64,000 nt of DNA from Enterobacteria phage ATK47: sequence record NC_055708.1. The stretch is one strand, 5' to 3'. Position numbers and translations under genes: made by a program. Numbering within the stretch: position 1 is the stretch's first letter; each line of letters begins with the position of its first letter. Under the pieces are notes generated by a model that did no database searches, was not told the origin of the DNA, and saw nothing but the letters and a program-made list of their open reading frames with translations. Below, one piece after another: positions 6,188-48,769 of the stretch.

Positions 6188-6224
6188 GTTTACAACTAAG
6201 TAGGACTATGATATAGTAGTCCTA
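6188..6224 (+). promoter_or_regulatory. T4-type early promoter (GTTTAC -35, TATAGT -10) with inverted repeat taggacta/tagtccta bracketing the -10
   Basis: GTTTAC 6188-6193, 18-nt spacer, TATAGT 6212-6217; arms 6201-6208 and 6217-6224 are exact reverse complements. Confidence 0.55.
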
Positions 6225-6243
6225 TCTAAAAGAGGATAACATT

Positions 6244-6507
6244 ATGAAATTTAAATTTTTCTACGCAAAACATAAAGTAACAGGCGAATTTGTTTCAATG
6301 TACAACACCGCAGATGACGAAGGGATGATTTATACTCATTTAGGTCTATCTCATTGGGACTCGGACGTGCCTTATATGTCATCTGAAGCCGAAATAACTC
6401 GTCTGGTTAACGGGCATATGAACGACCATTTTAATGTTATTCTTTCTAAAGACCTTAAAGAGGTTATCAACAAAGGATATATGGAACTTGCGGAAGTTGA
6501 GATATGA
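6244..6507 (+). CDS. Hypothetical protein
   Basis: 87-aa ORF downstream of early promoter, RBS gagga. Confidence 0.5.
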   Translation: MKFKFFYAKHKVTGEFVSMYNTADDEGMIYTHLGLSHWDSDVPYMSSEAEITRLVNGHMNDHFNVILSKDLKEVINKGYMELAEVEI

Positions 6508-6699
6508 GCTCTAAAATGTGGATAGGAATATGGTTGCTTAGTATCCCAATGATTTGTATAATATTTTCAATTGTGTTGAGGTACTTATGAAAAATGCACT
6601 TCTTATTGTACTAAGAACAATTTGTGATACGGGTTTTTACATTGCATGTTCGTTCACTGGAACATGGTTGGCTTTAACATATTTTAATGTAATTTAATT

Positions 6700-6736
6700 G
6701 TTTACAACATAGTAGGATTATGGTATAGTAGTCCTA
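6700..6736 (+). promoter_or_regulatory. T4-type early promoter with near-palindrome around -10
   Basis: GTTTAC 6700-6705, TATAGT 6724-6729, flanking taggatta/tagtccta. Confidence 0.55.
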
Positions 6737-6757
6737 TCAAAACATGAGGAACACAAA

Positions 6758-6958
6758 ATGGCTAAGCTTTTTAAAGATGTTGAAATTGGTGAAAAATTTG
6801 TTCTGAATAATGGTCAGCAGCTTATTCGTGTAGCTTCTATCGCCGGACAAACTCATAACTGTATCGCCCCAACGTGTTGGACTCGATTCTTTATTGAGGA
6901 TGACACTGAATGTTTAACTGTTGAAGAGCTTTTTGAACGTTCTGATATAGCCGAATAA
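6758..6958 (+). CDS. Hypothetical protein
   Basis: 66-aa ORF preceded by catgaggaac RBS. Confidence 0.5.
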   Translation: MAKLFKDVEIGEKFVLNNGQQLIRVASIAGQTHNCIAPTCWTRFFIEDDTECLTVEELFERSDIAE

Positions 6959-6960
6959 AA

Positions 6961-6997
6961 TTGTACAAACTCTTGAGAGCAGAGTATAATGCTCTCA
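6961..6997 (+). promoter_or_regulatory. Early-type promoter (TTGTAC -35 variant, TATAAT -10) with 8-bp inverted repeat tgagagca/tgctctca
   Basis: TATAAT 6985-6990 flanked by exact inverted repeat. Confidence 0.5.
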
Positions 6998-7034
6998 TGG
7001 ATTACAAAAACATTAATCAATTGAGGAAATTAGC

Positions 7035-7481
7035 ATGTCCAAATATTTAACTCGTAAAGACCTTCTGGCAGTTGGCGGTGAAGTTGTTGCAGTAGTTCGT
7101 AATGGCGAATACGGTTCTGAAGTTTCTAAAGAGTTTCGTTCTCGTGAAGGTTTTTACTTCTTTGTTAAAGGTTCATCTGATTGGCGACAAGTAGCAGCAC
7201 GATTCTTTGTAGGACGTCAACGTTCTAAACAAGGGTTGGATGCAATTCTTTCTCACATTCGTCAAGGCCGCTCACAACTCGCCCGTACCATGGGCACTAA
7301 TAATATTGAATATGATGTAATCTTTGTTTCAGCTAAGAACATGAAACCCCTAACTACCGGTTATGGTAAAGGACAATTGGCTCTAGCGTTCACTCGCAAC
7401 CATACATCAGAATATCAAACACTCACTGAAATGAACCGTCTTCTGGCCGATAATTTCAAATTTATTCTGCAGAGTTACTAA
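7035..7481 (+). CDS. ndd: Nucleoid disruption protein Ndd
   Basis: 148 aa; position between rIIB and gene 52; sequence resembles my recollection of T4 Ndd (approx 151 aa). Confidence 0.55.
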
Positions 7482-7533
7482 TTTATACAGGCCTATTAAG
7501 TTAGGCCTTTAATTTATTTTTGAGGTAATTAAA

Positions 7534-7680
7534 ATGGTAGCATGGATTATTGCATTGCTGTGTTGGTCGTTTTTATTCGTTAACACTTTAGTTACAGGCG
7601 AAACAACAGTATTTCAACAGGCTGTATCACAAGGTACCTTAGCGGTCTTAGCTCTTCTTAACGTATTAAAAGGCGAGTAA
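7534..7680 (+). CDS. Small hydrophobic (membrane) protein, 48 aa
   Basis: ATG 7534 after RBS tgaggtaa; translation MVAWIIALLCWSFLFVNTLVTG... is predicted TM; below ORF-track size cutoff. Confidence 0.35.
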   Translation: MVAWIIALLCWSFLFVNTLVTGETTVFQQAVSQGTLAVLALLNVLKGE

Positions 7681-7820
7681 TGATTAAGAAAATCTTAGCA
7701 GGAGCCTTCGGGCTCTTGTTGTTGCTTACGGTTCTGTACTATGGTGTGATGTTTGGACTAATCCAAGTAGTGCTTTTCATTTCAGATGTTATAATGGTTA
7801 TTCGTTCATTAATATGGTGA
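7680..7820 (+). CDS. Small hydrophobic (membrane) protein, 46 aa
   Basis: TAATG stop-start overlap with previous ORF; translation MIKKILAGAFGLLLLLTVLYYGVMFGLIQ...; ends 4 nt before gene 52 start. Confidence 0.35.
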   Translation: MIKKILAGAFGLLLLLTVLYYGVMFGLIQVVLFISDVIMVIRSLIW

Positions 7821-7824
7821 AAAT

Positions 7825-9150
7825 ATGCAATTGAATTCTCGTAATCTAAAAAGTATTATTGATAACGAAGCCTTAGCATATGCTATGTACACCGTTGAAA
7901 ACCGTGCAATCCCAAACATGATTGATGGATTTAAGCCGGTTCAACGTTTTGTGGTTCATCGTGCATTAGATTTGGCTCGTGGTAATAAAGAAAAATTTCA
8001 TAAACTTGCGTCAATTGCAGGCGGTGTTGCAGATTTAGGTTATCACCATGGTGAATCTTCTGCACAAGATGCAGGTGCATTGATGGCTAACACATGGAAT
8101 AACAACTATCCACTATTAGATGGTCAAGGCAACTTTGGTTCTCGAACAGTCCAAAAAGCTGCAGCATCTCGTTATATTTTTGCTCGTGTAAGCAAAAATT
8201 TCTATAACGTATATAAAGATACTGAATATGCTCCAGCTCATGAAGATAAAGAACACGTTCCACCAAAATTCTATCTTCCTATTATTCCGACAGTTCTTTT
8301 GAATGGCGTCTCTGGTATTGCAACCGGTTACGCAACAAATATTCTGCCTCATAGTTTTAAATCGGTCAAAAAGGCTGTATTACAAGCTCTTCAAGGTAAA
8401 AATGTCACTAAGCCAAAAGTTGAATTCCCGGAATTCCGTGGTGAAGTACATGAAGTTGATGGGCGTTATGAGATTCACGGAACATATAAGTTCACATCTC
8501 GCACTCAAATGCAAATAACTGAAATCCCATATAAATTCGACCGTGAAACGTATGTGAGTAAGGTTCTTGACCCGTTGGAAGACAAAGGTCTAATCTCATG
8601 GGAAGATGATTGCGGTGAACACGGCTTTGGGTTTAAGGTGAAGTTCCGTAAAGAGTACTCGCTTCCTGATGATGAAGAGCTACGTCATGAAAAAATCATG
8701 AAAGATTTTAGTCTCATCGAACGTCGTTCACAAAACATCACAGTGATTAATGAAAAGGGTAAATTAGCAGTCTACGATAACGTAGTGGACTTAATCAAAG
8801 ATTTTGTTGAAGTCCGTAAGACTTACGTTCAGAAACGTATTGACAACAAAATCCTTGAATCTGAAAAAGCATTTAAACTTGCTTTTGCTAAGGCTCACTT
8901 CATCAAAAAAGTTATCAACGGTGAAATTGTGATTCAGGGCAAGACTCGTAAAGCTTTGACTGAAGAGCTAGCACAAATCGAAATGTATAAAGAACATGTC
9001 GATAAACTGGTAGGTCTTAACATCTTCCATATCACTTCCGACGAAGCACGTAAACTAGCAGAAGAAGCTAAAGCTAAGAAAGAAGAAAATGAGTATTGGA
9101 AGTCTACTGATGTTGTGACAGAGTACACTAAAGACTTGGAGGCACTTTGA
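7825..9150 (+). CDS. 52: DNA topoisomerase II medium subunit (GyrA-like)
   Basis: 441 aa; N-terminal AMYTVENRAIPNMIDGFKPVQR matches GyrA/ParC DNA-breakage-reunion domain signature; size as T4 gp52. Confidence 0.9.
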   Translation: MQLNSRNLKSIIDNEALAYAMYTVENRAIPNMIDGFKPVQRFVVHRALDLARGNKEKFHKLASIAGGVADLGYHHGESSAQDAGALMANTWNNNYPLLDGQGNFGSRTVQKAAASRYIFARVSKNFYNVYKDTEYAPAHEDKEHVPPKFYLPIIPTVLLNGVSGIATGYATNILPHSFKSVKKAVLQALQGKNVTKPKVEFPEFRGEVHEVDGRYEIHGTYKFTSRTQMQITEIPYKFDRETYVSKVLDPLEDKGLISWEDDCGEHGFGFKVKFRKEYSLPDDEELRHEKIMKDFSLIERRSQNITVINEKGKLAVYDNVVDLIKDFVEVRKTYVQKRIDNKILESEKAFKLAFAKAHFIKKVINGEIVIQGKTRKALTEELAQIEMYKEHVDKLVGLNIFHITSDEARKLAEEAKAKKEENEYWKSTDVVTEYTKDLEAL

Positions 9151-9226
9151 GTGCCCTAGCCTTAGGATTTCTCGGTGCAATAGCTGTACTAGTGATTTGG
9201 CTGTATTGGTTGGACAAACATGATTA

Positions 9227-9247
9227 GGGAGCTTCGGCTCCCTTTTG
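9227..9247 (+). terminator. Intrinsic terminator gggagcTTCGgctccc + TTTTG
   Basis: Perfect stem with UUCG loop and T-run. Confidence 0.7.
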
Positions 9248-9269
9248 TGCATTTTTTTCTCACAAAACA

Positions 9270-9298
9270 GTTTACACGTGCTTCAAACGTGATATTAT
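9270..9298 (+). promoter_or_regulatory. T4-type early promoter
   Basis: GTTTAC 9270-9275, 17-nt spacer, TATTAT 9293-9298, followed by conserved atagacctatcaaaacaaa box. Confidence 0.55.
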
Positions 9299-9337
9299 AG
9301 ACCTATCAAAACAAAACAACCAAATTGGAGAAATAAA

Positions 9338-9553
9338 ATGTCTAAAATGAAATTAACCCAAAACACAACTACTCGTTTCGGTAAAGTTAAACCTGGTATG
9401 AATGCTCCCCGTAAAGCACTTGTTGAAGAATTAAATTTCTTAGAAGTTGAAATCAATTCTTTAGTGGTTCGCGGTTCAAATGGACGTCATTTAGAAAAGC
9501 TTCGTTCTAAAAAGGCAAAACTTATTGGCCTTATTAAAGAAATGAGTTTGTAA
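9338..9553 (+). CDS. Hypothetical protein
   Basis: 71-aa ORF with ggag RBS between two early promoters. Confidence 0.5.
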   Translation: MSKMKLTQNTTTRFGKVKPGMNAPRKALVEELNFLEVEINSLVVRGSNGRHLEKLRSKKAKLIGLIKEMSL

Positions 9554-9590
9554 ATTTTACCAGGGCTTTTGAAAAAGAGCCCAAAATAAA

Positions 9591-9619
9591 GTTTACTTTT
9601 GCTTCAAACATGATATTAT
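9591..9619 (+). promoter_or_regulatory. T4-type early promoter
   Basis: GTTTAC 9591-9596, TATTAT 9614-9619, same downstream box as promoter at 9270. Confidence 0.55.
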
Positions 9620-9656
9620 AGACCTATCAAAACAAATACTAATTTGGAGAAATAAA

Positions 9657-10289
9657 ATGTCTAAAGTTACTTACATCATCAAAGCTTCTGAAAACGCTCT
9701 GAATGAAAAAACTGCTGCAATAATGGTTTATATCATTAAGAACAACTTCACCACTGCTGCCAATGTCCGTGAAGCTCTGGAATCGGAATACAATGCATCG
9801 GTTGTTAACTCTAACATTGGTGTATTGATTAAGAAAGGTTTAGTCGAAAAATCTGGCGATGGGCTTGTGGCAACAGGCGAAGCAATGGATATTATCCAAA
9901 AAGCTGCAGACCTATTTGCCCAAGAAAATGCTCCAGAACTTCTTCAGAAACGTAACACTAGAAAAGCACGTGGAGTTACTCCTGAAATGCATGAATTAGC
10001 AAACTTTGTTTTTGAAAATATTAAAGATAAAGTTGAAGTTAAAGAAATTGGTGAAAACCGTAGTAACTTAGAAGTTCGATTTGCAAAACGAGTTCTAGGC
10101 ATTCGCCAAATTGAAATTCGTCGAGATGGCGCTCTTAGAATCTTTGCATACAACATGTCAGAAACTGAATCAAAGCTGTTTACTTCTCTTGAAAATGATG
10201 TTAAGATTAAGATCGGTGGTAAATATACTTACATTGACTTCCCTAATGTGTCTAAAGAAATCATTACCCTTGTAACTAACGTACTGTGA
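9657..10289 (+). CDS. motA: Middle transcription activator MotA
   Basis: 210 aa (T4 MotA approx 211 aa); position downstream of gene 52 as in T4. Confidence 0.6.
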   Translation: MSKVTYIIKASENALNEKTAAIMVYIIKNNFTTAANVREALESEYNASVVNSNIGVLIKKGLVEKSGDGLVATGEAMDIIQKAADLFAQENAPELLQKRNTRKARGVTPEMHELANFVFENIKDKVEVKEIGENRSNLEVRFAKRVLGIRQIEIRRDGALRIFAYNMSETESKLFTSLENDVKIKIGGKYTYIDFPNVSKEIITLVTNVL

Positions 10290-10299
10290 GGAATACATA

Positions 10300-10629
10300 A
10301 TGAATAAGCTGAATATTATTAACGAACTTCGTAAATGTGCAGAACCTACTCAGGAAGGATGGGATATTTGGTACCACGGGGCTTATTTAGGGACAATTGT
10401 AAAGATTAAAGCAGGCCAATATACGGTTATTCGTGAAAATAATGACGCGCCATTTGGCCTTCGTAAAAACTACATGGCAGCGATCAGTTCATTTGTTGAT
10501 GCAGCTTACGAAATCTATAAAGAAGATTATAAAGAATATCAGCAGTCACAACCAGTTATTCGTTCGATTGGTGTAAATAAACAAGCACAAAAATCTATTT
10601 GGCAACGTATTAAGGAATGGTTTAAATGA
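10300..10629 (+). CDS. Hypothetical protein
   Basis: 109-aa ORF, RBS gagga. Confidence 0.5.
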
Positions 10630-11087
10630 AATCATTTAAAGAACGTTTAGAGCTATTAGATTTGGCCTTGTCTCGTGAGACTCCTGAAAGTCTAGCAGAA
10701 AAATTCCAGTCCTACGGTTATAATTATTCTGCTGATGATATAATGAATGAAGTTCCTGAAATCTGTTGGCAAACATGCTATTGGAATAATGACCAAAAAG
10801 TTCAACGTGTTATAGTATGTGCAGCTAATAGGTTTAAATTGAAGAGCGGTGGAACTCTGGTTATTCCTGGAGTTCGTCATTACTCTAAAGATATGGCTGA
10901 AGTACTTGATATAGTTGGTCCTCAATTAGTCTCGCAACAAGTTTGTGGTGACGACCAAGGCTTTATTGACCAATACTCTAATTACTGGACACGTGAAGAA
11001 GCAATGATTATTGCAACGTATGCTGGACAGGTACGTATTGAACGTGGCGGAAGTGAGAAAGAACTTTATTCAGAGGACCTGTATTAA
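10626..11087 (+). CDS. Hypothetical protein
   Basis: 153-aa ORF, ATGA overlap with upstream gene (translational coupling). Confidence 0.5.
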
Positions 11088-11368
11088 TGAATATTAAACA
11101 ACTCCAGAAAGATGCTATTGAATCACGTATCCAAGATATCAAACGTCTTAATCATATGATGGAAGAAAACTATGGTATGTATGCTAATCAGCCTGGTTGG
11201 GATGCTTTAGACCATCCTTATTTGGTTAATTTATGTAAAGGTGATACGTTAGCAATTATTCGTGATGGGTTAAAACCTTTCTTGCGTGACATGTATATTA
11301 AAATGAACGAAGAAATTATTAGCTCGTTGCAATATCAATTAAGGAAATTAGATGATGAGAATAATTGA
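11087..11368 (+). CDS. Hypothetical protein (size and position compatible with T4 Arn; unverified)
   Basis: 93-aa ORF, stop-start overlap with upstream ORF. Confidence 0.45.
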   Translation: MNIKQLQKDAIESRIQDIKRLNHMMEENYGMYANQPGWDALDHPYLVNLCKGDTLAIIRDGLKPFLRDMYIKMNEEIISSLQYQLRKLDDENN

Positions 11369-11570
11369 TTCTAAAGCGGATTATTTTAATTCTGTTAATG
11401 ATAAGAATAAAGCTTTAATTCGCCACTTTATTACTGAGATGGGATATACCGACTCTAAAGATTTGAAAGAGCACATTATCGAATGTTCTGTGGCTAAAAA
11501 GTTTTCTTTCACAGACAAATGTTTAAACGAGGTTATAAATCATTATGAACAATCTTGTAGCAAAACATGA
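11352..11570 (+). CDS. Hypothetical protein
   Basis: 72-aa ORF overlapping neighbours by a few codons. Confidence 0.4.
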   Translation: MMRIIDSKADYFNSVNDKNKALIRHFITEMGYTDSKDLKEHIIECSVAKKFSFTDKCLNEVINHYEQSCSKT

Positions 11571-11653
11571 TTTCAATAAGGCTTCTGTCCATAAGGACAA
11601 GAAGAAATCAGAACTTCAATCTAAACGCAAACAAAAACATAAGGGTAAAGACT

Positions 11654-11953
11654 ATGCTTACTAAAATCAAAGAAAATCCTGCCACTGAACTTGTTATTCG
11701 ATGTGAAGAACTTGCAGAGCTTTATCAGGTTAACCGAGAAGTGTGTCGTAGTGTTATCGTAGATATGGAAGATGAAGTATGTTCTCGTATTCCTTTTAGT
11801 GTCGATTTCAATCATATGAAGCCTGGTGAAATCACTATCGTCTTTGGTTCTGACTATACTGAAGAACGGGCTCTTAATGCCCTAGAATATGAAATGTCAT
11901 TCTTCGACATACAGGACTACATTGATAGTTATAAGGAACAATATGAGTCATAA
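11654..11953 (+). CDS. Hypothetical protein
   Basis: Internal ATG 11654 preceded by aagggtaaag RBS preferred over the 11567 start. Confidence 0.45.
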   Translation: MLTKIKENPATELVIRCEELAELYQVNREVCRSVIVDMEDEVCSRIPFSVDFNHMKPGEITIVFGSDYTEERALNALEYEMSFFDIQDYIDSYKEQYES

Positions 11954-12104
11954 TCTTCAGAACGTAGTAGAGGCCGAACGTGAGCGTGAGGCTTTAGTCT
12001 ATAATGAACTATTGGCCTCGTTCTTAGCCTTAAACTCGTACGAACAGGAAGACTACATTGATTACGTTAAAAGCGTAGAAAAAGCCGTTTACAATCAACA
12101 CTGA
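11942..12104 (+). CDS. Hypothetical small protein
   Basis: ATG 11942 overlapping stop of previous ORF; 53 aa. Confidence 0.35.
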
Positions 12105-12150
12105 TAATGGTACTATATCCATATCAACTAAGTGGAATGAATAAAACGTT

Positions 12151-12423
12151 ATGAATAAAGACATTGAAATCGTACGTGAAATTATTACTATTGCTTCTAT
12201 TTTGATTAAATTCTCTAGGGAAGATATTGTTGAAGACCGAGCAAGTTTCATCGGATTCTTGAATGAGATTGGAATTAAAAAAGATGGTCGGCAGCTAAAT
12301 CAGAATTCGTTCAGAAAACTAATTACAAATTTAACTGCCGAAGAAAAGAAAACACTGATTAGTGAATTCAATGAAGGTTTTGAAAATATTTATCGTCATT
12401 TAGCGATGTATTCTAACAACTAA
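12151..12423 (+). CDS. asiA: Anti-sigma70 factor AsiA
   Basis: 90 aa; MNKDIEIVREIITIASILIKFSREDIVE... closely matches recalled T4 AsiA. Confidence 0.85.
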   Translation: MNKDIEIVREIITIASILIKFSREDIVEDRASFIGFLNEIGIKKDGRQLNQNSFRKLITNLTAEEKKTLISEFNEGFENIYRHLAMYSNN

Positions 12424-22697: not shown

Positions 22698-22727
22698 GTT
22701 TACGCTTTCAAATGAGTGTGTTACTAT
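22698..22727 (+). promoter_or_regulatory. T4-type early promoter for rnh
   Basis: GTTTAC 22698-22703, TACTAT 22722-22727. Confidence 0.5.
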
Positions 22728-22759
22728 AGTCAAGTTGACTAACTGAACAAGAGGTTCAT

Positions 22760-25942: not shown

Positions 25943-25964
25943 GGGAGACTTCGGTCTCCCTTTT
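25943..25964 (+). terminator. Intrinsic terminator gggagacTTCGgtctccc + TTTT
   Basis: Perfect 7-bp stem, UUCG loop, T-run. Confidence 0.7.
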
Positions 25965-25991
25965 GAGTATCTGTAAATTGCCGAAAAAGTT

Positions 25992-26020
25992 GTTTACTTC
26001 TTCCCTGGATGTGTTAGTAT
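25992..26020 (+). promoter_or_regulatory. T4-type early promoter
   Basis: GTTTAC 25992-25997, TAGTAT 26015-26020, downstream atagacctatcaaaacaaa box then ATGAGGAAAT RBS. Confidence 0.55.
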
Positions 26021-26050
26021 AGACCTATCAAAACAAATGAGGAAATCATA

Positions 26051-26413: not shown

Positions 26414-26438
26414 GTACAGCACAAATGAGGAAATCAAA

Positions 26439-26862: not shown

Positions 26863-26894
26863 TCCTATCAAATAAAAGTGAAGAGGAGAATAAA

Positions 26895-27137: not shown

Positions 27138-27146
27138 GGAAATACA

Positions 27147-31429: not shown

Positions 31430-31479
31430 GAATTTTGTTTATAATTGACTCATGGATGAGTCACTATTGAGAGAATATA

Positions 31480-32684: not shown

Positions 32685-33095
32685 ATGAAAGATATTGCCG
32701 CCGAATATTCCTTTATTAAATATACAGAATTGGAGCTATTAGAAGATGCAACAATTAAAACAGTTGATGTCCCTAATAAGAAAAATGTCATATACGCTAT
32801 TGCTATAGATGACGAACTTGTGTATATTGGTAAAACCAAGAATTTAAAGAAACGCATTAACTATTATCGAACAGCCATAAATCGAAAAGACCAGACTTCA
32901 GATTCAAGAAAATCACTTATGATTTTGGATGCCTTAATGCAAGGCAAAAAGGTTGAATTCTGGGCCCGCCAATGTTTTGACCTTTCAGTCACCAACGAAC
33001 TTGGTTCAATGACCATCGCAACAATGGACCTTGAAGAACCGCTTTTTATCAAAAAGTTCAACCCGCCTTGGAATATCCAACATAAGAAAAAGTAG
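32685..33095 (+). CDS. denA: Endonuclease II (GIY-YIG family)
   Basis: 136 aa; GIY-YIG-like motif IYAIAIDDELVYIGKTKNLKKRINYYR; size and position (between nrdB and rnlA) as T4 denA. Confidence 0.6.
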   Translation: MKDIAAEYSFIKYTELELLEDATIKTVDVPNKKNVIYAIAIDDELVYIGKTKNLKKRINYYRTAINRKDQTSDSRKSLMILDALMQGKKVEFWARQCFDLSVTNELGSMTIATMDLEEPLFIKKFNPPWNIQHKKK

Positions 33096-33124
33096 TTTAC
33101 ACACCACAAGGATTGTGGTACAAT
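33095..33124 (+). promoter_or_regulatory. T4-type early promoter with spacer palindrome ccacaa/ttgtgg
   Basis: GTTTAC 33095-33100, TACAAT 33119-33124. Confidence 0.5.
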
Positions 33125-33142
33125 TTAAAAAAAACTAACTGA

Positions 33143-34276
<1,134 letters not shown>

Positions 34277-34278: not shown

Positions 34279-34308
34279 GTTTACAAACACCAAGGAAGGT
34301 GTTACTAT
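34279..34308 (+). promoter_or_regulatory. T4-type early promoter with spacer palindrome aacacc/ggtgtt
   Basis: GTTTAC 34279-34284, TACTAT 34303-34308. Confidence 0.5.
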
Positions 34309-34338
34309 GGCTTTTATCAATAACACGAGGAGAAAATT

Positions 34339-34839
34339 ATGAATATGCAATTGATTACTAATGATATGGTCGTAACCGCTTTTGGAGACACAACTGACGG
34401 AATCCGAGTCTTTAAGAAAGGACGTCCAGTTGGTTATCTTACCGACCTACGTGTTACACTGGCCAAAAATCTTAAAAAGAAAGTAAAACAAAAAGAGTAT
34501 TCCACCCGATACGCTGAAGAGAAACGCGAAGCGATGCCGGAAGCAGTTAATGCCATGGTAGAATTTCTTCAAAACAATTTGACTAAATATGACGCTAATG
34601 TTTTCGTTAATATTAGTCAACCAAACGTACATATCGCAGGTATAAAATTCTACATTATTTGCGACCCTCTTACCGACAAATTCAACCGCCTCGGAATTTC
34701 AAGTCCGTATCATACAGCAGAAGAGTTGTGTGTATTGTTTGAATCATACAAAATCCAGTGTGATGGTTTGAAAACCGTTCTTATCAATGGATTATCCCGA
34801 GATGAAATCATTGAGATTATTAAAACATGCTTAAAGTAA
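34339..34839 (+). CDS. alc: Alc (transcription terminator of C-containing DNA) candidate
   Basis: 166 aa (T4 Alc approx 167 aa), position after rnlA as in T4. Confidence 0.5.
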   Translation: MNMQLITNDMVVTAFGDTTDGIRVFKKGRPVGYLTDLRVTLAKNLKKKVKQKEYSTRYAEEKREAMPEAVNAMVEFLQNNLTKYDANVFVNISQPNVHIAGIKFYIICDPLTDKFNRLGISSPYHTAEELCVLFESYKIQCDGLKTVLINGLSRDEIIEIIKTCLK

Positions 34840-35470: not shown

Positions 35471-35685
35471 CTAAAGAACAGCATGAATACATTAAAGGGC
35501 TTATCTATGAATCTGAAATGGCGGCTATGATTTATGGGCGCCAGATTCAACGATTAGAATCTTTGCCTCCGACTAATGACCGATTGTTAGTTCAGTCTCG
35601 TGCTAATCTGAAAAATGAATATCAGAATAAGTGGGCAGTAGCGACTAAAGCTCTTCACGAGTATATTGAATCTTTAGTAAAATAG
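35461..35685 (+). CDS. Hypothetical protein
   Basis: 74-aa ORF overlapping o-spanin end. Confidence 0.45.
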   Translation: MPMTKEQHEYIKGLIYESEMAAMIYGRQIQRLESLPPTNDRLLVQSRANLKNEYQNKWAVATKALHEYIESLVK

Positions 35686-35719
35686 TTTACAAACTCTCAG
35701 GAGCAGAGTATAATGCTCC
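35685..35719 (+). promoter_or_regulatory. T4-type early promoter with inverted repeat ggagca/tgctcc bracketing TATAAT
   Basis: GTTTAC 35685-35690, TATAAT 35709-35714, arms 35700-35705 and 35714-35719. Confidence 0.55.
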
Positions 35720-35742
35720 TATGGATAATTGAGGAAATCTAA

Positions 35743-36041
35743 ATGAAAACATTACTAGAGAATTACATCAAACGGTCTGATGAGTATATTGATATCTGTC
35801 GTGGAATGTCACTTGGCAATTATGACAAAGATGCAGCAAAGGCACTAGATGAAGCAGGTAAAGCTCTTCGTAAAGCTGCTAAAGAAAAAGGGTTGGATTT
35901 GCAACAACTCAAAAGTCATATGATTAAATTTATTTCTTCAAACGTTAGAAGTACGTCAATTAATAAAAACGTTGCTGAAATTAATAAAGACCGGCGCGAG
36001 CATAACATTCGTATTCTTGAAATTTTCTTAGGAATAAAATA

Positions 36042-36042
<1 letters not shown>
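35743..36042 (+). CDS. Hypothetical protein
   Basis: 99-aa ORF, RBS ttgaggaaat. Confidence 0.5.
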
Positions 36043-37810: not shown

Positions 37811-37840
37811 GTTTACAACATGGCGGAGTTGTGATACTAT
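37811..37840 (+). promoter_or_regulatory. T4-type early promoter
   Basis: GTTTAC 37811-37816, TACTAT 37835-37840, then ATGAGGAAAT RBS. Confidence 0.5.
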
Positions 37841-37868
37841 AACTCTACCAACAAATGAGGAAATAGAA

Positions 37869-38105
37869 ATGCTAAGTGAAAACCCAATTACAGTACACGA
37901 ATTTCAGATTAAAGTAAAAGAATTTGCTCAAGCACTCATCAATAAAGTGTCTGAACGTTTCCAGGATGCAACATTACGAGTTATTCAAGAATCTCCACGT
38001 TCTTTTCTCATAATCGTTAATCCTAAAGATGGTGACCAAATTACTAATCTTAAATTAGGCAGTGATGGTCTTGTTGAAGCAACTCGAGTATATGGAACAC
38101 TATAA
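37869..38105 (+). CDS. Hypothetical protein
   Basis: 78-aa ORF. Confidence 0.45.
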   Translation: MLSENPITVHEFQIKVKEFAQALINKVSERFQDATLRVIQESPRSFLIIVNPKDGDQITNLKLGSDGLVEATRVYGTL

Positions 38106-40860: not shown

Positions 40861-41154
40861 GTTTTAGGTGATTCGCTACCTTAGTGCGGCTAGAAAATCG
40901 AGGAGCCGTCGAACTGTCTGATTAATGATTTGCGAATCATTATAGTTTTAAGACCCCGGCAGTTTTACGGTGTACCTCTTGAATGTATTTTATACTATCA
41001 CGCGTCAGAAAAAGGTTATCTGTCTAAGTCGTGGTTGGTATGATGACGGGTTTATGGTTATCCTGTCGTTAAATATCCAAAACCTATGTTCCCCTTGAGG
41101 GCTTGCGCAGGCAATGTCAATAAGTCCTGCATTTTCATTTAAAGAGAATTTATA

Positions 41155-41339: not shown

Positions 41340-41361
41340 GGGAGACTTCGGTCTCCCTTTT
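41340..41361 (+). terminator. Intrinsic terminator gggagacTTCGgtctccc + TTTTG
   Basis: Perfect 7-bp stem, UUCG loop, T-run. Confidence 0.7.
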
Positions 41362-41393
41362 GTGCGTTTAGGGCAGAAAAAGTTTAAAAAGAT

Positions 41394-41422
41394 GTTTACT
41401 CTCCTGTAGGATGTGTTACTAT
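41394..41422 (+). promoter_or_regulatory. T4-type early promoter
   Basis: GTTTAC 41394-41399, 17-nt spacer, TACTAT 41417-41422. Confidence 0.5.
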
Positions 41423-41464
41423 AGACTTGTACCATCTAATCAATAAAACAACCTGGAGAACAAA

Positions 41465-41833
41465 ATGAAAATCAATCTGAACTCATACATCAAATGTAAA
41501 GACCATGACGGTTATAAAGCTATCGAAATTAAAGAATTCCAGTGGATGTTATACAAAGAGCAATTTGAGTTCGTAGGTTGTATGACCCCTGAAGGTCCTT
41601 CTGATGATTTCTCTTGGAAAATTGTGTTAGCAAACTTTTTCACAGGTGACACATACGAATTAAAAACTATTATTACCGGTAAAATTCGTTCAGAAACATA
41701 TGTTGACGAAGAAACTGGTTACTCTGAAGATGTTACATGGTATCAAAATGGACGCATTACAGCAGATAACCTGATCGAAAAAATGAAAGCCAAAGGTGTT
41801 TTAAATTTAGACAATTGGATTAAAGTTGCATAA
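41465..41833 (+). CDS. Hypothetical protein
   Basis: 122-aa ORF with ggag RBS downstream of early promoter. Confidence 0.5.
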   Translation: MKINLNSYIKCKDHDGYKAIEIKEFQWMLYKEQFEFVGCMTPEGPSDDFSWKIVLANFFTGDTYELKTIITGKIRSETYVDEETGYSEDVTWYQNGRITADNLIEKMKAKGVLNLDNWIKVA

Positions 41834-41837: not shown

Positions 41838-41877
41838 GTTTACTTTGGTACAGGTTATGTTATTATAGACCTGTACC
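41838..41877 (+). promoter_or_regulatory. T4-type early promoter with 8-bp inverted repeat ggtacagg/cctgtacc bracketing TATTAT
   Basis: GTTTAC 41838-41843, TATTAT 41861-41866. Confidence 0.55.
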
Positions 41878-41907
41878 AACAAACAACTTAAACATCCGGA
41901 GAATAAA

Positions 41908-42273
41908 ATGAACTACACCAACTTCGAACGCAAATATGTTTCTAACGGTATCGCTGGTTCTTCTGAAGTTATTTGCTTATGGAAACACGAAAACGGTACA
42001 GTTTGTGAAATCGAACAGTGCATGACTCCTAATTATGTTTATATGCGATTTGAAAATGGCATCACGGTTTCAATCACGATGGAAGGTTCAAATTTTAAAA
42101 TTGCATTAGATGATGATTTCCGTCAGCGCGATTTAGGTACTCATCCTTGCTGGAATGGTGTTAATCGTAAACTTCTGGTTAAAACCTGGATTCGTCATAT
42201 CCTGAGTAACCGAGCTAAACCTGAACATCTCGAAGCAATCTTTGATGTAGTTCTTAACGAATTTGATATCTAA
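41908..42273 (+). CDS. Hypothetical protein
   Basis: 121-aa ORF with ggag RBS. Confidence 0.5.
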   Translation: MNYTNFERKYVSNGIAGSSEVICLWKHENGTVCEIEQCMTPNYVYMRFENGITVSITMEGSNFKIALDDDFRQRDLGTHPCWNGVNRKLLVKTWIRHILSNRAKPEHLEAIFDVVLNEFDI

Positions 42274-42308: not shown

Positions 42309-42923
42309 ATGTTTAAAGTTAATACTTTTTATAAAATGAATTTTAAAAATGGGGATATTACTCCACGCCTTAAAAACATGTTCTCATATGACCTTATCGA
42401 GCCTTTTGAAGTTTTAGAAGTTACTGATGCCGGCTCAGTTTGTGAAATTAGAACTTCTGAAGGTAAAATTTATCAGGCAGGTGTTGGTAAATTCAGTAAT
42501 TGTTTTACTTTAATATTCTCGACCGATTTAGATGAGCATTTTATTGAATGTCCTAACCCTAAGGTCCATGAAGTTCCATGGAAAGAAACTAAGAAAAATG
42601 GACCGCATGAATACACGAAGGTTGAAACTCCTCACGGCGATATGTGGCGTCATAACTCTCCTTTTGGAAGTAAAGGAACATTTGCTCAACTGCCTAAACC
42701 GTATGACGATGAAAAATACATCGTCGCCTTTTTATCTGAACAGGGTACTCAAGACCGTGGATGCCAAAGAAGTGGTTTACTAAGTGAACTTGAAGCTCAT
42801 AACCAAGCACGTGAATTCGTTGAGAAAAATCCTGGTTCTGAAGCTCTAGTCATGAAAGCAGTTACTCAATATATCACTGCTCAACCTATTGTTCATCCGG
42901 TAGAAATTAATTTCATTAAGTAG
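42309..42923 (+). CDS. Hypothetical protein
   Basis: 204-aa ORF, RBS gagga. Confidence 0.5.
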   Translation: MFKVNTFYKMNFKNGDITPRLKNMFSYDLIEPFEVLEVTDAGSVCEIRTSEGKIYQAGVGKFSNCFTLIFSTDLDEHFIECPNPKVHEVPWKETKKNGPHEYTKVETPHGDMWRHNSPFGSKGTFAQLPKPYDDEKYIVAFLSEQGTQDRGCQRSGLLSELEAHNQAREFVEKNPGSEALVMKAVTQYITAQPIVHPVEINFIK

Positions 42924-42953
42924 TTTACATCCAAGGACGGATTAGAGTATAAT
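42923..42953 (+). promoter_or_regulatory. T4-type early promoter
   Basis: GTTTAC 42923-42928, TATAAT 42948-42953 (spacer about 19). Confidence 0.45.
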
Positions 42954-42977
42954 GATTTCTTTAGTAAGTGGAAAAAT

Positions 42978-43175
42978 ATGAAATTTTTAATAGCACAAAC
43001 AGTCCAATTAAAAGGTGTTGGAATTCCTGGGGTGATTTTTAAAGTTCTCCCTGAATTTAAAACCGCCGCTGGAATTATCAATGAAGCGTATGCTGTTCAA
43101 TGGGTTGATTGGACTTCTGACATACGTATGGGTAAAGAGTTATCTCCTATTAAAGGGTTGAAACATGTTGAATAA
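42978..43175 (+). CDS. Hypothetical protein
   Basis: 65-aa ORF. Confidence 0.4.
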   Translation: MKFLIAQTVQLKGVGIPGVIFKVLPEFKTAAGIINEAYAVQWVDWTSDIRMGKELSPIKGLKHVE

Positions 43176-43377
43176 ATTAATCCAGAAATTGTTAGGTACA
43201 GAAATGATCGAAGTTACTTATCGTGTAACTGACTGCTCGCCTATTCATCCACAGGATGAACCATTTATCAAGACAATTAAAATGCTTAAAAATGACGGTG
43301 GTTTATCTATTGAAGACCGTCTGCCTAGTTACGGCCATTGGGCTGATGTTGAAATTATAAGTGTTAAAGATGTCTGA
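43165..43377 (+). CDS. Hypothetical protein
   Basis: 70-aa ORF. Confidence 0.4.
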   Translation: MLNKLIQKLLGTEMIEVTYRVTDCSPIHPQDEPFIKTIKMLKNDGGLSIEDRLPSYGHWADVEIISVKDV

Positions 43378-43828
43378 ATTAGAAATAAGAAGTAATTTCA
43401 AGTGGCCGTCATGTGCATTAAGTAACTTTGCTCAATGGCCTTTTGTTATGGATGGTATTCAATTCGGAGGTCTTGAAGGATTTCTCCAAGGATGTAAGGT
43501 GAAAAATGTTGAACAACAAAGACGTATATTTGGGTTGTCTGGATTGGCTGCACAGCAAGCTGGAAGGTCTTATGCAAGAGCTCAGGACCGTGGAACTCTC
43601 TTCTGGTTAGGAGTTCCGTTTTCAAGATACTCCGAAGCGTGGAAAGAATTATACACAAATGCATATTTTGAAGCCGCGATCCAAAATAAGGGGTTTCGTG
43701 ATGCCTTACAAGCCTCTAAAGGAAAAATTTTGAAGCACAGCATGGCTAGCCACCTAACAAAAGATGATACAATACTAACTGAAGCTGAATTTATTGATGT
43801 GTTAAACCTATTAAGAGACTCTTTATGA
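43361..43828 (+). CDS. NADAR-like (YbiA/DUF1768 family) protein
   Basis: 155 aa; ALSNFAQWPFVMDG closely matches the SNFAAWP...DG core of E. coli YbiA / NADAR domain (recalled). Confidence 0.5.
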   Translation: MLKMSELEIRSNFKWPSCALSNFAQWPFVMDGIQFGGLEGFLQGCKVKNVEQQRRIFGLSGLAAQQAGRSYARAQDRGTLFWLGVPFSRYSEAWKELYTNAYFEAAIQNKGFRDALQASKGKILKHSMASHLTKDDTILTEAEFIDVLNLLRDSL

Positions 43829-44640
43829 AGCCTACTATTTTGACTGATATTGATGGTGTATGTTTAAGTTGGCAATCTGGACTTCCTTATTTTGCCCAAA
43901 AATATAATCTTCCATTAGAACATATTTTAAAAATGATTCAGGACGAAAAATTTATTTCTCCTGGTAAACTATTCAATACCGACGATAACCTTGGTAAACA
44001 ATTAATAGAAAAATATAATAGCTCTGATTTTATTCGTTACTTAGCGCCTTATTCAGATGCTCTTCGAGTTATCAATAAACTAAAAGAAGACTATAATTTT
44101 GTAGCCGTGACGGCGCTAGGTGATTCAATTGATGCTCGATTGAATAGACAATTTAATTTGAATGCTTTGTTCCCAGGCGCTTTCTCTGAAGTAATGATGT
44201 GTGGTCATGATTCTTCAAAGGAACAATTATTCGAACTAGCTAAAACAAAATATAACGTGATTTGTTACGTTGACGATTTAGCTCATCACTGTGACCATGC
44301 GGCAGAAATTCTTAATGTACCGATTTATTGGTTGGCTCGTGGTGAACGTGATGATATTCCTCGCACTGCACAACGTGTACACACGTGGGATGATATTGAA
44401 TCTCGATTGGTTCCGCCAGAGCATAATTCAAATTCAGATCGTGAAGACCTTTTAAAACGATTGGCCGATTTGCTTAAAGAATCTGGTGCAACAAGTCCAG
44501 GTGCATGGCCTAATCAAATTGGCGCTCCGTCGAATCCGTATACCTGGCGAACCCCAGGACCAACTGATATGCGGCCATGGTGGACGATTCAAAACTTTCC
44601 TTTAGATTCGTCTAAATGGACTTGGTCTATAAATTGTTAA
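43825..44640 (+). CDS. HAD-superfamily hydrolase-like protein
   Basis: 271 aa; N-terminal HAD motif I ILTDIDGV; ATGA overlap with upstream NADAR-like gene. Confidence 0.5.
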   Translation: MKPTILTDIDGVCLSWQSGLPYFAQKYNLPLEHILKMIQDEKFISPGKLFNTDDNLGKQLIEKYNSSDFIRYLAPYSDALRVINKLKEDYNFVAVTALGDSIDARLNRQFNLNALFPGAFSEVMMCGHDSSKEQLFELAKTKYNVICYVDDLAHHCDHAAEILNVPIYWLARGERDDIPRTAQRVHTWDDIESRLVPPEHNSNSDREDLLKRLADLLKESGATSPGAWPNQIGAPSNPYTWRTPGPTDMRPWWTIQNFPLDSSKWTWSINC

Positions 44641-46409: not shown

Positions 46410-46597
46410 TGAAAGCTTATTTAGAAACAGTTATTGTAGCTAAGAAGGATGGTGGAGATGTTTCCACCTCTTGCTCTCAGATTATATTAGATTTTCCTAA
46501 TGAAAATTCGTATCGGGTTTTCGTAGATAACGTTAATGGGTACGAAAAAGGCCCTAATTTTGAAGTTTATCGTACTTTGCTCCCGATTGTGGATTAA
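46388..46597 (+). CDS. Hypothetical protein
   Basis: 69-aa ORF overlapping ligase 3' end. Confidence 0.4.
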   Translation: MVPDRFIMKAYLETVIVAKKDGGDVSTSCSQIILDFPNENSYRVFVDNVNGYEKGPNFEVYRTLLPIVD

Positions 46598-46617
46598 GAG
46601 CCTTCGGGCTCTTTTTG
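46597..46617 (+). terminator. Intrinsic terminator agagccTTCGggctct + TTTTT
   Basis: Perfect stem, UUCG loop, T-run. Confidence 0.65.
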
Positions 46618-46652
46618 GCATAAATATAAATTATTACTAAAAGGAAAACACT

Positions 46653-48740
46653 ATGTCTGAACAAATAAACGAAGTGTTTGAATCTGAAGGCAGTCTTCCT
46701 GTCGTCAATTTGAACCCTAAAGCTAAAGTTCCACAAGTCTGGAAAATTGGTGATATCGATACAAACATCGTAGTTCGCTTATTCTCTTATCTTTCTGAAG
46801 GCGATGCCGTAAAACAAGTTAAACTTGGCGACAAATACGCTCATGTTGTTATTATGAGTCTATCTGAAAAGGGTAATCTCGCTGAATTGAAAAATGGCCT
46901 TGGTCCTGCTCCTATTGATGCAATCAACACTATTTTCAATACAGTATATGAACAGGTTAAAGCTCTTCGTATGGATGCAGTTCTGTTCCGATTCCCTACC
47001 AAGAAATTGAAAGGACGTGGACAACAGCTTCAAACTCTTCTTGCTCGTTTAGTTTCTACTAAAACCGGTGGTCGTTTTAAAGTATTGTCGGCAATGTATC
47101 AATTCACAGGTAAACACACCTATGTGATGATGGTTCGTAAAAATGCCAACATTGAAGATATTAAAGGCATCCCTAACATTAACACAGAGTTGTATACGAA
47201 AGTAGATTCTGATGTTGGCGAAGTTTATGTGAGTAAAAAGACCGGCGAAAAGGTCACCAAAGAAACGGCTATCGCTGGTTCTATTGCTGCTGTAGAAGAA
47301 AAACGTAAAGATAAGCCTGTTATTGCTCGTACTAAAATTTCTCGTCGTGCTATTGCAGCAAGTCAATCTTTAGAAGCTGACCGACAAGAAGGTGAGTTAT
47401 TCCAGAAATACGAAAATTCTGCTAAAGAAGTTAGTGGCCCAGCTACGGCCGAATTACTTCCTGAAGCATATGAAATCGTACTAGCCCAAGCATCGTCCAC
47501 AGCAAAAGGCACTTTAGTTGCTGATATCGAAAATAAGATTTATAATCGTATTGATGAATCCTTTAAATTTGCCGATGAAGTTTCTTATGGTAGTGTTATT
47601 AAGCCGACTTTAGAAAAGTTTGCTAAGAAAATTAAAACTGAAAAAACAACATCTGTTAAAGCATTAGCTGCTTTTGTTGAAGCTGCAAATGAAATTGCAG
47701 ACTCTATTAAAGACGAATGGTTTGAAGATTTTAGACGTGATAATTTCCAACTGCCTGACGACGTTTTAGCTGAAGTATCTGAAAGAACTTGGAAACAACG
47801 TAAATCAGCGTTCTTGTCTAATGTGATGTATACTTATGCCCGAGAATCGGCTAGAGGCACCTTTAATATAACAATGAATCGGGACCCTAAACAATACTCT
47901 GTTGCTGAAAAACGAGCTATTCGTGAATATGCCTCTTCTGCGTATACCGATATCAATAATATGTTGTTAGGTCGTTATAAACCGGATTTTTATGATGTTG
48001 CAGATGAAGATGAAGTTAAACGCGCTATTGATGGTCTTGATTCGGCGTTTTTAAATGGAGACCGTTTACCTGAAGGACTAACGTTATATAGAGCTCAGTC
48101 TATCAGAATGCCTATTTACGAAGCAATGGTTAAAAATAAGGTATTCTACTTCAGAAACTATGTTTCCACTTCACTAGCTCCTATTATTTTCGGTGGGTTT
48201 AAAGAGAACGTTGCCCTTGGACTTGCTCCTGAAGAAGTTCGCAAAGAGCTTAACATTGACAATAATGACGAAGGTGTTACTATTTCTCCTAGTCAAGTAA
48301 GAACAGCTATGCATGCACCAGAACAAATCCGTGTTAACGTTGGATGGGCTATCGATGGCGCCCATAAAGTTAACGTGATTTATCCAGGACAGTTGAGTAA
48401 CCACCCTAATGAGCAAGAAATTATTTTGCCTAGAGGCATTCTCTTGCAGATAAATAAAATTACAGATGCGTCATCTGACACCGGTGCAGGTTTAGAATCC
48501 AACCTTAAATTTATTCAAGCTGAAGTCATGTCCTCAGACCAGTTGGATGAAGCCGTCATTTATGATGGTGATGTTCTCATGGAAACAGGCGAGGTGGTTG
48601 CTATGACGGGTGAAATCGAATCGGATGAGCCGGTATCGTTCTCCTCATTTGTAGAAAAAACTAGTGCACCTAAAGGTTTGAAATTGTTAGCATCTTTAAT
48701 GGATTTAGAATCAGTTCCGTTTAAATTTGTCCAAGGATAG
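46653..48740 (+). CDS. alt: ADP-ribosyltransferase Alt (virion-packaged)
   Basis: 695 aa; R-S-E type ART signature elements YRAQS (Arg), YVSTSL (STS), EQEIILPRG (catalytic Glu) in C-terminal half; position between 30 and 54. Confidence 0.7.
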   Translation: MSEQINEVFESEGSLPVVNLNPKAKVPQVWKIGDIDTNIVVRLFSYLSEGDAVKQVKLGDKYAHVVIMSLSEKGNLAELKNGLGPAPIDAINTIFNTVYEQVKALRMDAVLFRFPTKKLKGRGQQLQTLLARLVSTKTGGRFKVLSAMYQFTGKHTYVMMVRKNANIEDIKGIPNINTELYTKVDSDVGEVYVSKKTGEKVTKETAIAGSIAAVEEKRKDKPVIARTKISRRAIAASQSLEADRQEGELFQKYENSAKEVSGPATAELLPEAYEIVLAQASSTAKGTLVADIENKIYNRIDESFKFADEVSYGSVIKPTLEKFAKKIKTEKTTSVKALAAFVEAANEIADSIKDEWFEDFRRDNFQLPDDVLAEVSERTWKQRKSAFLSNVMYTYARESARGTFNITMNRDPKQYSVAEKRAIREYASSAYTDINNMLLGRYKPDFYDVADEDEVKRAIDGLDSAFLNGDRLPEGLTLYRAQSIRMPIYEAMVKNKVFYFRNYVSTSLAPIIFGGFKENVALGLAPEEVRKELNIDNNDEGVTISPSQVRTAMHAPEQIRVNVGWAIDGAHKVNVIYPGQLSNHPNEQEIILPRGILLQINKITDASSDTGAGLESNLKFIQAEVMSSDQLDEAVIYDGDVLMETGEVVAMTGEIESDEPVSFSSFVEKTSAPKGLKLLASLMDLESVPFKFVQG

Positions 48741-48769
48741 TTTACAAACACATGGATGTGTGATACTAT
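48740..48769 (+). promoter_or_regulatory. T4-type early promoter
   Basis: GTTTAC 48740-48745, TACTAT 48764-48769, followed by ATGAGGAAAA RBS. Confidence 0.5.

Follow-up and report, generated by a model that had tools for sequence, protein, structure and literature searches.

Results

T4-type early promoter cassettes in an RB69-like phage

We analyzed a 64,000-nucleotide (nt) stretch of the Enterobacteria phage ATK47 record NC_055708.1, hereafter the window, and the cassettes that recur between its early genes. Each cassette consists of a promoter, a leader and a ribosome-binding site (RBS), and many carry an inverted repeat around the -10 box of the promoter. The window corresponds to positions 98235-162234, + strand, of the record of ATK48 (KT184310.1), an RB69-like phage of the genus Mosigvirus. 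Window positions 43-50000 are 100% identical to that record, and BLAST searches with 6000-12000 and 24001-49000 gave the same full identity. The region is syntenic with the early and middle regions of T4. Read in the direction of early transcription, its first part carries 39, rIIA, rIIB, denB, ndd, 52, motA, arn and asiA, followed by a tail-fibre block on the opposite strand; the second part carries rnh, 33, 59, 32, frd, td, nrdAB, denA, rnlA, alc, pseT, cd, 31, rIII, 30.x, 30 and alt. For comparison we used T4, four other Mosigvirus genomes and about 70 T-even loci from IMG/VR. Locus searches with single proteins gave only close relatives, and alignment-based searches were needed for wider loci. 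A scan of the whole window against Rfam at gathering thresholds returned no matches.

An initial annotation, made from the letters of the DNA alone, had listed 16 start sites sharing a -35 element GTTTAC, a spacer of 17-18 nt and a TATAAT-like -10, and all 16 hold this module. Three of them deviate slightly: TTGTAC takes the place of GTTTAC at 6961, the element reads GTTTAT at 26831, and the gap after GTTTAC is 19 nt at 42923. We identified a 17th site, absent from that list, in front of asiA (12087). On the + strand the strict pattern GTTTAC-N17/18-TAnnnT has 19 matches and on the - strand none, compared with a mean of 2.1 (both strands summed) and a maximum of 8 in 200 dinucleotide shuffles. 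All 17 sites have the -35 and -10 elements of T4-type early promoters, separated by 17 +/- 1 base pairs (bp) counted from TTTACA. The extended -10 motif TGn is present at 14 of them, and the 22 nt upstream of the -35 resemble an A/T-rich UP region, with 75% A+T against 62% window-wide. A generic sigma-70 scan gave 72 sites where 62 were expected; as it did not discriminate, the generic scan was dropped as a detector, only the T4-type pattern separating signal from background.

The same motif is found in T4 at the syntenic junctions of motA, asiA, rnh, frd.2, alc, cd.3, 30.8, 30.7 and alt.-3. The site at 37811 corresponds to the cd.3 junction, where the T4 GenBank record names the early promoter Pe133295. 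Thus, the reading of these elements as early promoter-leader-RBS cassettes was borne out by the T4-type motif, the strand bias and the synteny with T4.

The cassettes fill the space between an upstream stop codon and the Shine-Dalgarno sequence and start codon of the next gene. At 12 of the 17 sites the -35 begins 0-13 nt past the upstream stop, and 24-44 nt separate the -10 from the start codon that follows. In the consensus, GGA within the spacer and CCTATC past the -10 are conserved. The two conserved downstream boxes proposed earlier are exact where they had been quoted (ATAGACCTATCAAAACAAA at 9297, 9618 and 26019; TAGTCCTATC at 6217, 6729 and 26860). The common RBS proposed with them held only in part: ATGAGGAAAT occurs exactly only at 26037, 26425, 37855 and, in addition, 59237, and TGAGGAAA is found at 9 sites. 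That the cassettes precede most of the small hypothetical genes was an overstatement, as about 11 small open reading frames (ORFs) have a cassette in front of them and many have none.

In addition, the RBSs at 9318-9337, 9637-9656, 41443-41464 and 41886-41907 match or nearly match the strong RegB consensus GGAGRAYARAA (for example GGAGAACAAAA for the promoter at 41394 and GGAGAATAAAA for that at 41838). This similarity suggests that RegB may inactivate these early mRNAs, as it does in T4.

Hairpins are embedded in about half of the promoters

The dyads quoted in the initial annotation are all present (6201-6208/6217-6224, 6974-6981/6990-6997, 35700-35705/35714-35719 and 41845-41855/41869-41879). 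We folded, for each promoter, the RNA segment from the end of the -35 to about +8 and expressed the result as a z-score. Eight of the 17 promoters (6188, 6700, 6961, 12087, 26831, 35685, 37811 and 41838) carry a hairpin with z <= -2.7, an energy of -6 to -18 kcal/mol and the -10 hexamer in the loop. Two more, 33095 (z -2.0) and 34279 (z -1.5), have a weaker hairpin in the spacer. Folding revealed no significant embedded hairpin at 9270, 9591, 22698, 25992, 41394, 42923 or 48740. When the same promoters were folded in a 170-nt read-through context, the hairpins persisted with base-pair probabilities of 0.5-1.0 (0.96 at 6188). Counting also the hairpins that lie directly upstream, a stem-loop is found in or beside the promoter at most sites: eight strong and embedded, two weaker in the spacer, four strong and directly upstream, and none at three (Table 1).

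The dyads are far commoner than in shuffled or slid controls, a comparison on which the initial annotation had staked its claim. Pairing each spacer with its own downstream flank gave a mean best stem of 5.2 bp, against 3.8 bp with the flanks of other promoters (permutation p ~1e-4). The promoter at 6961 is a paralogue of that at 35685, and two compensatory pair changes separate them. T4 and other T-even contigs conserve 8-12 bp of the stem at 41838.

Table 1 Early promoter cassettes of the window and their hairpins (window coordinates; z and energy refer to the embedded hairpin)
Position	Strand	Context	Hairpin or dyad	Energy (kcal/mol)	z
6188-6246	+	Cassette before ORF 6244-6507	TAGGACTA 6201-6208 / TAGTCCTA 6217-6224; -10 TATAGT in loop	-13.2	-4.2
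6700-6760	+	Cassette before ndd.1-like ORF 6758-6958	6713-6720/6729-6736; one T.G pair		-3.9
6961-7037	+	Cassette before ndd; -35 TTGTAC	TGAGAGCA 6974-6981 / TGCTCTCA 6990-6997		-3.5
9226-9340	+	Canonical terminator 9226-9243 with T-run, promoter 9270, leader, ORF 9338-9553	Embedded hairpin not significant		-0.3
9261-9346	+	Upstream copy of the ~86-bp direct repeat (promoter, leader, RBS, ATGTCTAAA); partner 9582-9667			
9563-9659	+	Upstream hairpin, promoter 9591, leader, motA	Upstream GGGCTTTT/AAGAGCCC 9563-9582, without T-run; none embedded		-0.2
12087-12153	+	Cassette before asiA	Bulged, TGATAATGG 12102-12110 / CCATATCA 12119-12126, around -10		-2.7
22698-22762	+	Cassette before rnh; divergent intergenic region facing late gene 34	None embedded		-0.4
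25943-26053	+	Canonical terminator 25943-25960 with TTTT, promoter 25992, leader, ORF 26051-26413	None embedded		+0.35
26831-26897	+	Cassette before ORF 26895-27137; GTTTAT	GATAGGGCTA 26842-26851 / TAGTCCTATC 26860-26869; one G.T pair	-16	-6.4
33095-33154	+	Cassette before rnlA; -35 overlaps denA stop	Spacer, ACCACAA 33103-33109 / TTGTGGT 33113-33119; loop GGA		-2.0
34279-34341	+	Cassette before alc	Spacer, AACACC 34286-34291 / GGTGTT 34298-34303; loop AAGGAA		-1.5
35685-35745	+	Cassette before ORF 35743-36042	AGGAGCA 35699-35705 / TGCTCCT 35714-35720, around TATAAT		-2.8
37811-37871	+	Cassette before ORF 37869-38105	GGAGTT 37825-37830 / AACTCT 37841-37846; outer TGG/CCA		-4.2
41340-41467	+	Canonical terminator 41341-41359 with T-run, promoter 41394, ORF 41465-41833	None embedded		+0.1
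41838-41910	+	Cassette before 30.7 homologue	11 bp, TTGGTACAGGT 41845-41855 / ACCTGTACCAA 41869-41879	-17.9	-5.2
42923-42980	+	Cassette before ORF 42978-43175	4-bp spacer dyad ATCC/GGAT only; not significant		+0.3
48740-48801	+	Cassette before alt.-3	Weak dyads GGATG/CATCC and ACACA/TGTGT; not significant		0.0

The arms covary around one axis

Among 193 unique T-even promoters, complementary runs of at least 6 bp centre on a single axis, between the first and second base of the -10, in 31 cases; the next axis accounts for 9 and the others for 0-4. At least 15 unrelated arm pairs share this identical geometry, including CGGTAGGACT/AGTCCTACCG, GGTGAGGGTCT/AGACTCTCACC, GTCTGTAGGA/TCCTACAGAC, TGGTATAGGAGCAT/ATACTCCTATACCA and, in T4, GGTAGAG/CTCTACC. 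Within orthologous families we observed series of G-C, G.T and A-T pairs as well as swaps from G-C to C-G.

We also analyzed 102 unselected promoters with an 18-nt spacer, aligned without gaps. Here the helix on the fixed axis is 58.1% paired, against 50.6 +/- 0.9% after column shuffling (a value reached in 0 of 500 shuffles) and 31-46% when the arms were slid, and the covariation score, 0.311, likewise exceeds those of the shuffled (0.210) and slid (0.10-0.21) helices. These figures bear on the possibility that the dyad as such is functionless and is a by-product of templated mutation at quasi-palindromes, of gene conversion between paralogues, or of conserved positions that are complementary by chance (GG at about -22 and CC at about -3). 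Partial complementarity is indeed seeded by the spacer GGA and the CCTATC after the -10, the column-shuffled controls are already 50.6% paired, many dyads occur within paralogous families, and a note in the T4 record, described below, attests to intrastrand events at such sites. However, pairing exceeds both the column-shuffled and the slid controls, unrelated arm sequences adopt a single geometry, and the 30.7 promoter retains a stem of 8-12 bp in T4, in ATK48 and in contigs with only about 50% identity in RnlA. Nor does a purely mutational origin predict that the presence of the hairpin tracks the upstream context, as shown in the next section. We therefore regard a by-product as an unlikely explanation.

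The initial annotation had offered an operator-like protein-binding site as one reading of the dyad. On this view, a dimeric phage or host protein would bind there and shut the early promoters off; a protein bound at the axis, the -12/-11 step of the -10, would prevent melting, and neither AsiA nor ModA explains early shut-off in T4 (Hinton 2010, PMC2988021). This proposal was not borne out, as there is no common recognition sequence: the arms TAGGACTA, TGAGAGCA, TTGGTACAGGT, GGAGTT and TGATAATGG differ from promoter to promoter, and the at least 15 arm pairs covary. Because the arms are unlike but covarying, a common operator half-site is excluded, and base-pairing is what is kept. The fixed axis, for its part, follows from sequence constraints: the -35, the TGn and the -10 have to be left free of the arms. 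Moreover, a strong dyad is present in only 38% of the predicted early promoters of ATK48 and T4 and in none of those preceded by a terminator. We consider an operator highly improbable. A dimeric-repressor operator was accordingly rejected as a candidate class, on the differing, covarying arms and on a dyad that is present in only about 40-60% of promoters.

Embedded hairpins depend on the upstream context

Four promoters of the window stand behind a strong hairpin and have no embedded one. At three of them, 9270, 25992 and 41394, the upstream hairpin is a canonical terminator, while at 9591 it lacks a T-run. The divergent rnh promoter has no embedded hairpin either, and 10 of the 12 promoters that adjoin an upstream gene have one.

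This pattern was examined in 85 predicted early promoters from the whole early regions of ATK48 and T4, with a hairpin called strong at z <= -2.5 and a promoter called abutting when it lies within -20 to +12 nt of the upstream stop codon. Strong embedded hairpins are found in 0 of 12 promoters preceded by a terminator and in 32 of the 73 others (p=0.0028). They are present in 28 of 53 abutting promoters, compared with 4 of the 32 others (p=0.0002), and the difference is retained when similar promoters are collapsed (13/31 vs 2/24, p=0.0065). The association is convincing only with the whole early regions of the two phages.

A proposed role for the hairpin in read-through transcripts

Our favoured reading is that these sites are T4-type early promoters with hairpins, that is, the cassettes known as PeSLs (promoter-early stem-loops), that the hairpin probably acts in read-through RNA and not as an operator, and that the repeated cassettes permit recombination. 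By homology to T4, the host sigma-70 RNA polymerase would use these promoters immediately after infection, each promoter being followed by a short A-rich leader and an RBS. Each early intergenic junction would carry one hairpin. Where only the promoter fits, the hairpin would use the promoter positions that are unconstrained. As a rule, its left arm occupies about -25 to -16, within the spacer, and its right arm starts at the final base of the -10 and reaches about +4; in fewer cases the spacer holds both arms. Behind an ordinary terminator hairpin, the embedded one is absent.

The initial annotation had argued that, with one arm upstream of the transcription start, the dyad must be a feature of DNA. 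This does not follow. These promoters lie 0-12 nt past a co-directional stop and no terminator-like site is found at the dyads, so transcripts reading through from upstream would contain both arms. Since the hairpin depends on the upstream context on the same strand, we infer that it acts in such transcripts, where it would fold and either serve as an intercistronic attenuator or stabilise the 3' end of the upstream cistron. RNA initiated at the promoter itself would lack the 5' arm and, because the embedded stems end at about +4, would be free of them.

Several observations weigh against this reading. The 6 nt after the embedded hairpins hold 0.9 T on average, in A-rich tails, against 4.5 after true terminators, and a terminator scan called none of the embedded hairpins terminator-like. 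G.U pairs outnumber A.C mismatches 8:2 under strict criteria (p=0.055), which is only suggestive, and the 11:6 obtained under permissive criteria is no different from the 12:8 at unselected positions in the flanks. Among the IMG/VR promoters, the context association reaches p=0.001 per promoter and is not significant per family, and the predicted promoters that do not abut a gene may include false positives. About 40% of the window promoters have no significant embedded hairpin, among them those at 42923 and 48740, which adjoin an upstream gene. Finally, promoter activity and read-through in ATK48 are taken over from T4, for which our literature search found no 3'-end mapping study.

Two candidates were set aside in this part of the analysis. 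With no U-tract and no terminator call, the embedded hairpins are not canonical intrinsic terminators, which consist of a G+C-rich stem and a U-run. The G.U/A.C asymmetry was likewise dropped as a test of RNA versus DNA, not being robust under permissive criteria.

Recombination between cassettes

The clearest rearrangement in the window involves a direct repeat of about 86 bp, at 9261-9346 and 9582-9667, that surrounds the ORF at 9338-9553. Together, promoter and ORF form a 321-bp unit (9347-9667, between the cassette copies). In two relatives (L003 and L005) this unit is missing, and a single hybrid cassette is found whose crossover lies in the common RBS and ATGTCTAAA. Seventy-five phage records contain the unique 235 bp of the unit, compared with about 150 close relatives in which the region is covered (about half). 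The ORFs at 26051-26413 and 26439-26831 are tandem paralogues with a common RBS (ATGAGGAAATCA), leader and N-terminus (MEIGKSYIINP), only the first having a promoter. Phages phi25-307, FL31 and PHB12 carry one copy, while LF82-3 has both in swapped order, each with its own spacer.

It had been proposed that the cassettes could shuffle early gene modules, with breakpoints in related genomes coinciding with them. The first part fits the published PeSL model and is illustrated by the 321-bp unit: the 60-90-bp cassette repeats could provide the homology for T4-type recombination, by which units of promoter and ORF would occasionally be gained or lost. The second part did not hold. In a crude tblastn comparison of gene adjacency over about 70 T-even loci, junctions with a cassette were broken in 55% of cases and those without in 51% (Mann-Whitney p=0.37), so that no preference of cassettes for variable (hyperplastic) junctions was seen. 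The other breakpoints relative to close relatives are insertions of homing endonucleases or introns, or replacements at plain gene boundaries (27128-27380). Thus, the cassettes can mediate shuffling, yet they are not the dominant breakpoints in the window.

Several sites of insertion or deletion were noted in passing. Relatives carry a Seg-like homing endonuclease between genes 33 and 59 (position 24270 of the window), a homing endonuclease between nrdA and nrdB (31435-31478), and a 1.1-kb insertion with a homing endonuclease gene inside nrdB (32154), likely an intron; the window has none of these insertions. Between rIII and the 30.9 homologue, 134 bp (40861-40994) are missing in LF82-3 and in another relative (L006), at an indel with no early-promoter cassette, and 31 bp (40864-40894) are missing in three other Mosigviruses. 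The cassette at 42923 forms the right edge of a module that is replaced in phage PHB12.

The dyad could also act as DNA, its hairpin or cruciform being a target or pause site for phage recombination or replication (endonuclease VII, template switching) through which early modules are shuffled. The authors of Arbiol 2010 (PMC2839356) speculate that a recombination protein may target the stem, and they detected minicircles between PeSLs. The clean indel between the repeats at 9270 and 9591, the duplication and order swap of the paralogues at 26051-26831, the T4 record discussed below and the lack of a robust G.T versus A.C asymmetry are all compatible with such a role. However, that indel, the clearest of all, uses cassettes without an embedded dyad, and its crossover lies in the RBS and first codons, not in a stem. 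Cassette junctions show no excess of synteny breaks, many of the breakpoints stem from homing-endonuclease insertions or are plain gene boundaries, and the loss of the dyad behind upstream terminators is left unexplained. As DNA, the hairpins are weak (-5 to -10 kcal/mol), with loops of 8-14 nt; weak hairpins with loops of this size disfavour extrusion, and cruciforms are therefore unlikely to extrude. A DNA-level role thus appears improbable to us, and we retain the reading of hairpins that act in read-through RNA.

The T4 record contains, at 133300-133313 (13301-13314 of L002), a misc_feature described as 'inverted complement of previously reported sequence; corrects the early promoter Pe133295'. 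Its span coincides exactly with the 14 nt, among them the -10, that the 7-bp arms GGTAGAG/CTCTACC enclose as a loop. An inversion of the Pe133295 loop between its arms was thus recorded at one time, possibly in a clone.

Annotation of the region

The ATK48 record marks none of these promoters. In addition, the ORFs at 9338-9553, 26051-26413, 26895-27137, 27147-27398, 35743-36042, 37869-38105, 41465-41833, 42309-42923 and 42978-44640 are unannotated in it. Most of them lie directly behind early cassettes or have homologues annotated in related phages such as LF82-3.

Positions 1-42 of the window differ from the ATK48 record by 24 mismatches and open with TGCTCTTCCGATCT, a remnant of an Illumina adapter; no further difference occurs up to 50000. 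The window is therefore a separate assembly from that of the ATK48 record, with the adapter left untrimmed at the contig end.

Discussion

The phenomenon described here is already known. Arbiol 2010 (PMC2839356) defined PeSLs in phages RB49 and phi1, with stems in the spacer or over the -10 that are drawn with G-T pairs, and proposed that the stems attenuate transcription from upstream and that cassettes recombine with one another. In that work, one stem cut lacZ expression as strongly as rrnB T1, and cassettes recombined into minicircles. The cassettes of the window share with those PeSLs the order of parts (a stop codon, an AT-rich tract, an early promoter, a stem-loop that overlaps the -10, sits in the spacer or lies to either side, then the Shine-Dalgarno sequence and start codon), as well as G-T pairs in stems, many cassette repeats flanking small ORFs, and indels between copies. 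They differ in sequence: the RB49/phi1 promoters are near-consensus sigma-70 promoters (TTGACA) with stems typically of the form GGGG...CCCC, whereas here we found GTTTAC and heterogeneous, AT-richer stems. Minicircles and attenuator activity are experimental results for RB49 and phi1, while the present cassettes are known from sequence.

The concept was extended to T4/PST (TTTACW-N17-TAYWAT; stems AGNA-loop-TCNT) and to KVP40/nt-1 by Comeau 2014 (PMC4122927), where Mosigvirus is not among the groups analyzed and the ndd-denB region is cited for PeSL-associated exchange of ORFs. The promoter type is the T-even one seen here, AGNA-loop-TCNT matches the AGGA...TCCT of our 6188/6700/26831 family, and the ndd-denB region is the same. 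In contrast to our cassettes, in which the stems are mostly inside the promoter, the figure legend of that paper places them just upstream of it. Neither the context rule nor the fixed axis is mentioned in the portions of Arbiol 2010 or Comeau 2014 that were consulted. The T4 early promoters reviewed in Hinton 2010 (PMC2988021) agree with ours in the -35 GTTTAC, the TGn, the TAnnAT, the A/T-rich UP region and extra conserved positions; that text speaks only of 'additional regions of consensus', and a search of it for dyad, inverted repeat and palindrome gave 0 hits. Throughout the literature we searched, dyad symmetry in T4 early promoters is mentioned in the PeSL papers only.

T4 itself carries especially long embedded dyads before ipI, at 73939 (L079), with arms GATGAGGTA/TACCTCATC, and in the ipIII-ipII intergenic region, at 65799 (L079), with arms of about 15 bp around the -10. 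Both fit an early report of PeSL-like elements at T4 internal-protein loci (Repoila 1994, as cited in PMC2839356).

A promoter inside a hairpin has a further precedent in the T4 genes e, soc, 49 and I-TevI (Uzan and Miller 2010, PMC3014915), where read-through RNA folds and RNA started internally lacks the 5' arm. There, however, the promoter is a late one and the hairpin sequesters the RBS and blocks early translation, whereas here the promoter is early. As the embedded hairpins end 15-40 nt upstream of the RBS, sequestration of the RBS is not predicted. Hairpins of the REP type stabilise transcripts as stable stem-loops just past the stop codon in polycistronic RNA. The embedded hairpins resemble REP elements and intrinsic terminators in their position just after a stop, and in this genome they exclude, and are excluded by, a canonical terminator at the same junction. 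They differ from intrinsic terminators in having no U-tract, and they may act as stabilisers.

Taken together, the finding is real and mostly ordinary, the fixed axis and the context rule being incremental additions to the PeSL concept. It extends PeSL cassettes to RB69-type phages, a genus not analyzed before, and tempers the view of cassettes as the main breakpoints in the mosaicism of T-even genomes. It also adds two modest regularities, a stem axis that is fixed relative to the -10 and an embedded stem that is present only where no separate terminator hairpin is available, which make the idea of an attenuator or stabiliser directly testable by mutating the arms and restoring them with compensatory changes.

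We also put forward a more speculative idea, to which we give only a slim chance. The hairpin might separate two classes of mRNA for each gene, a delayed-early read-through class that contains it directly before the leader and an immediate-early class that starts at the hairpin's 3' edge and is unstructured, and these might differ in decay, processing (by RNase E or RegB) or translation. The inverted repeat might also let the -10 loop invert now and then, as was once recorded for T4 Pe133295, and thereby turn the promoter off, and the placement rule might be common to all T-even phages. If this were true, the fixed -12/-11 axis, used only when a promoter abuts an upstream gene, would represent a compact and evolvable regulatory design.

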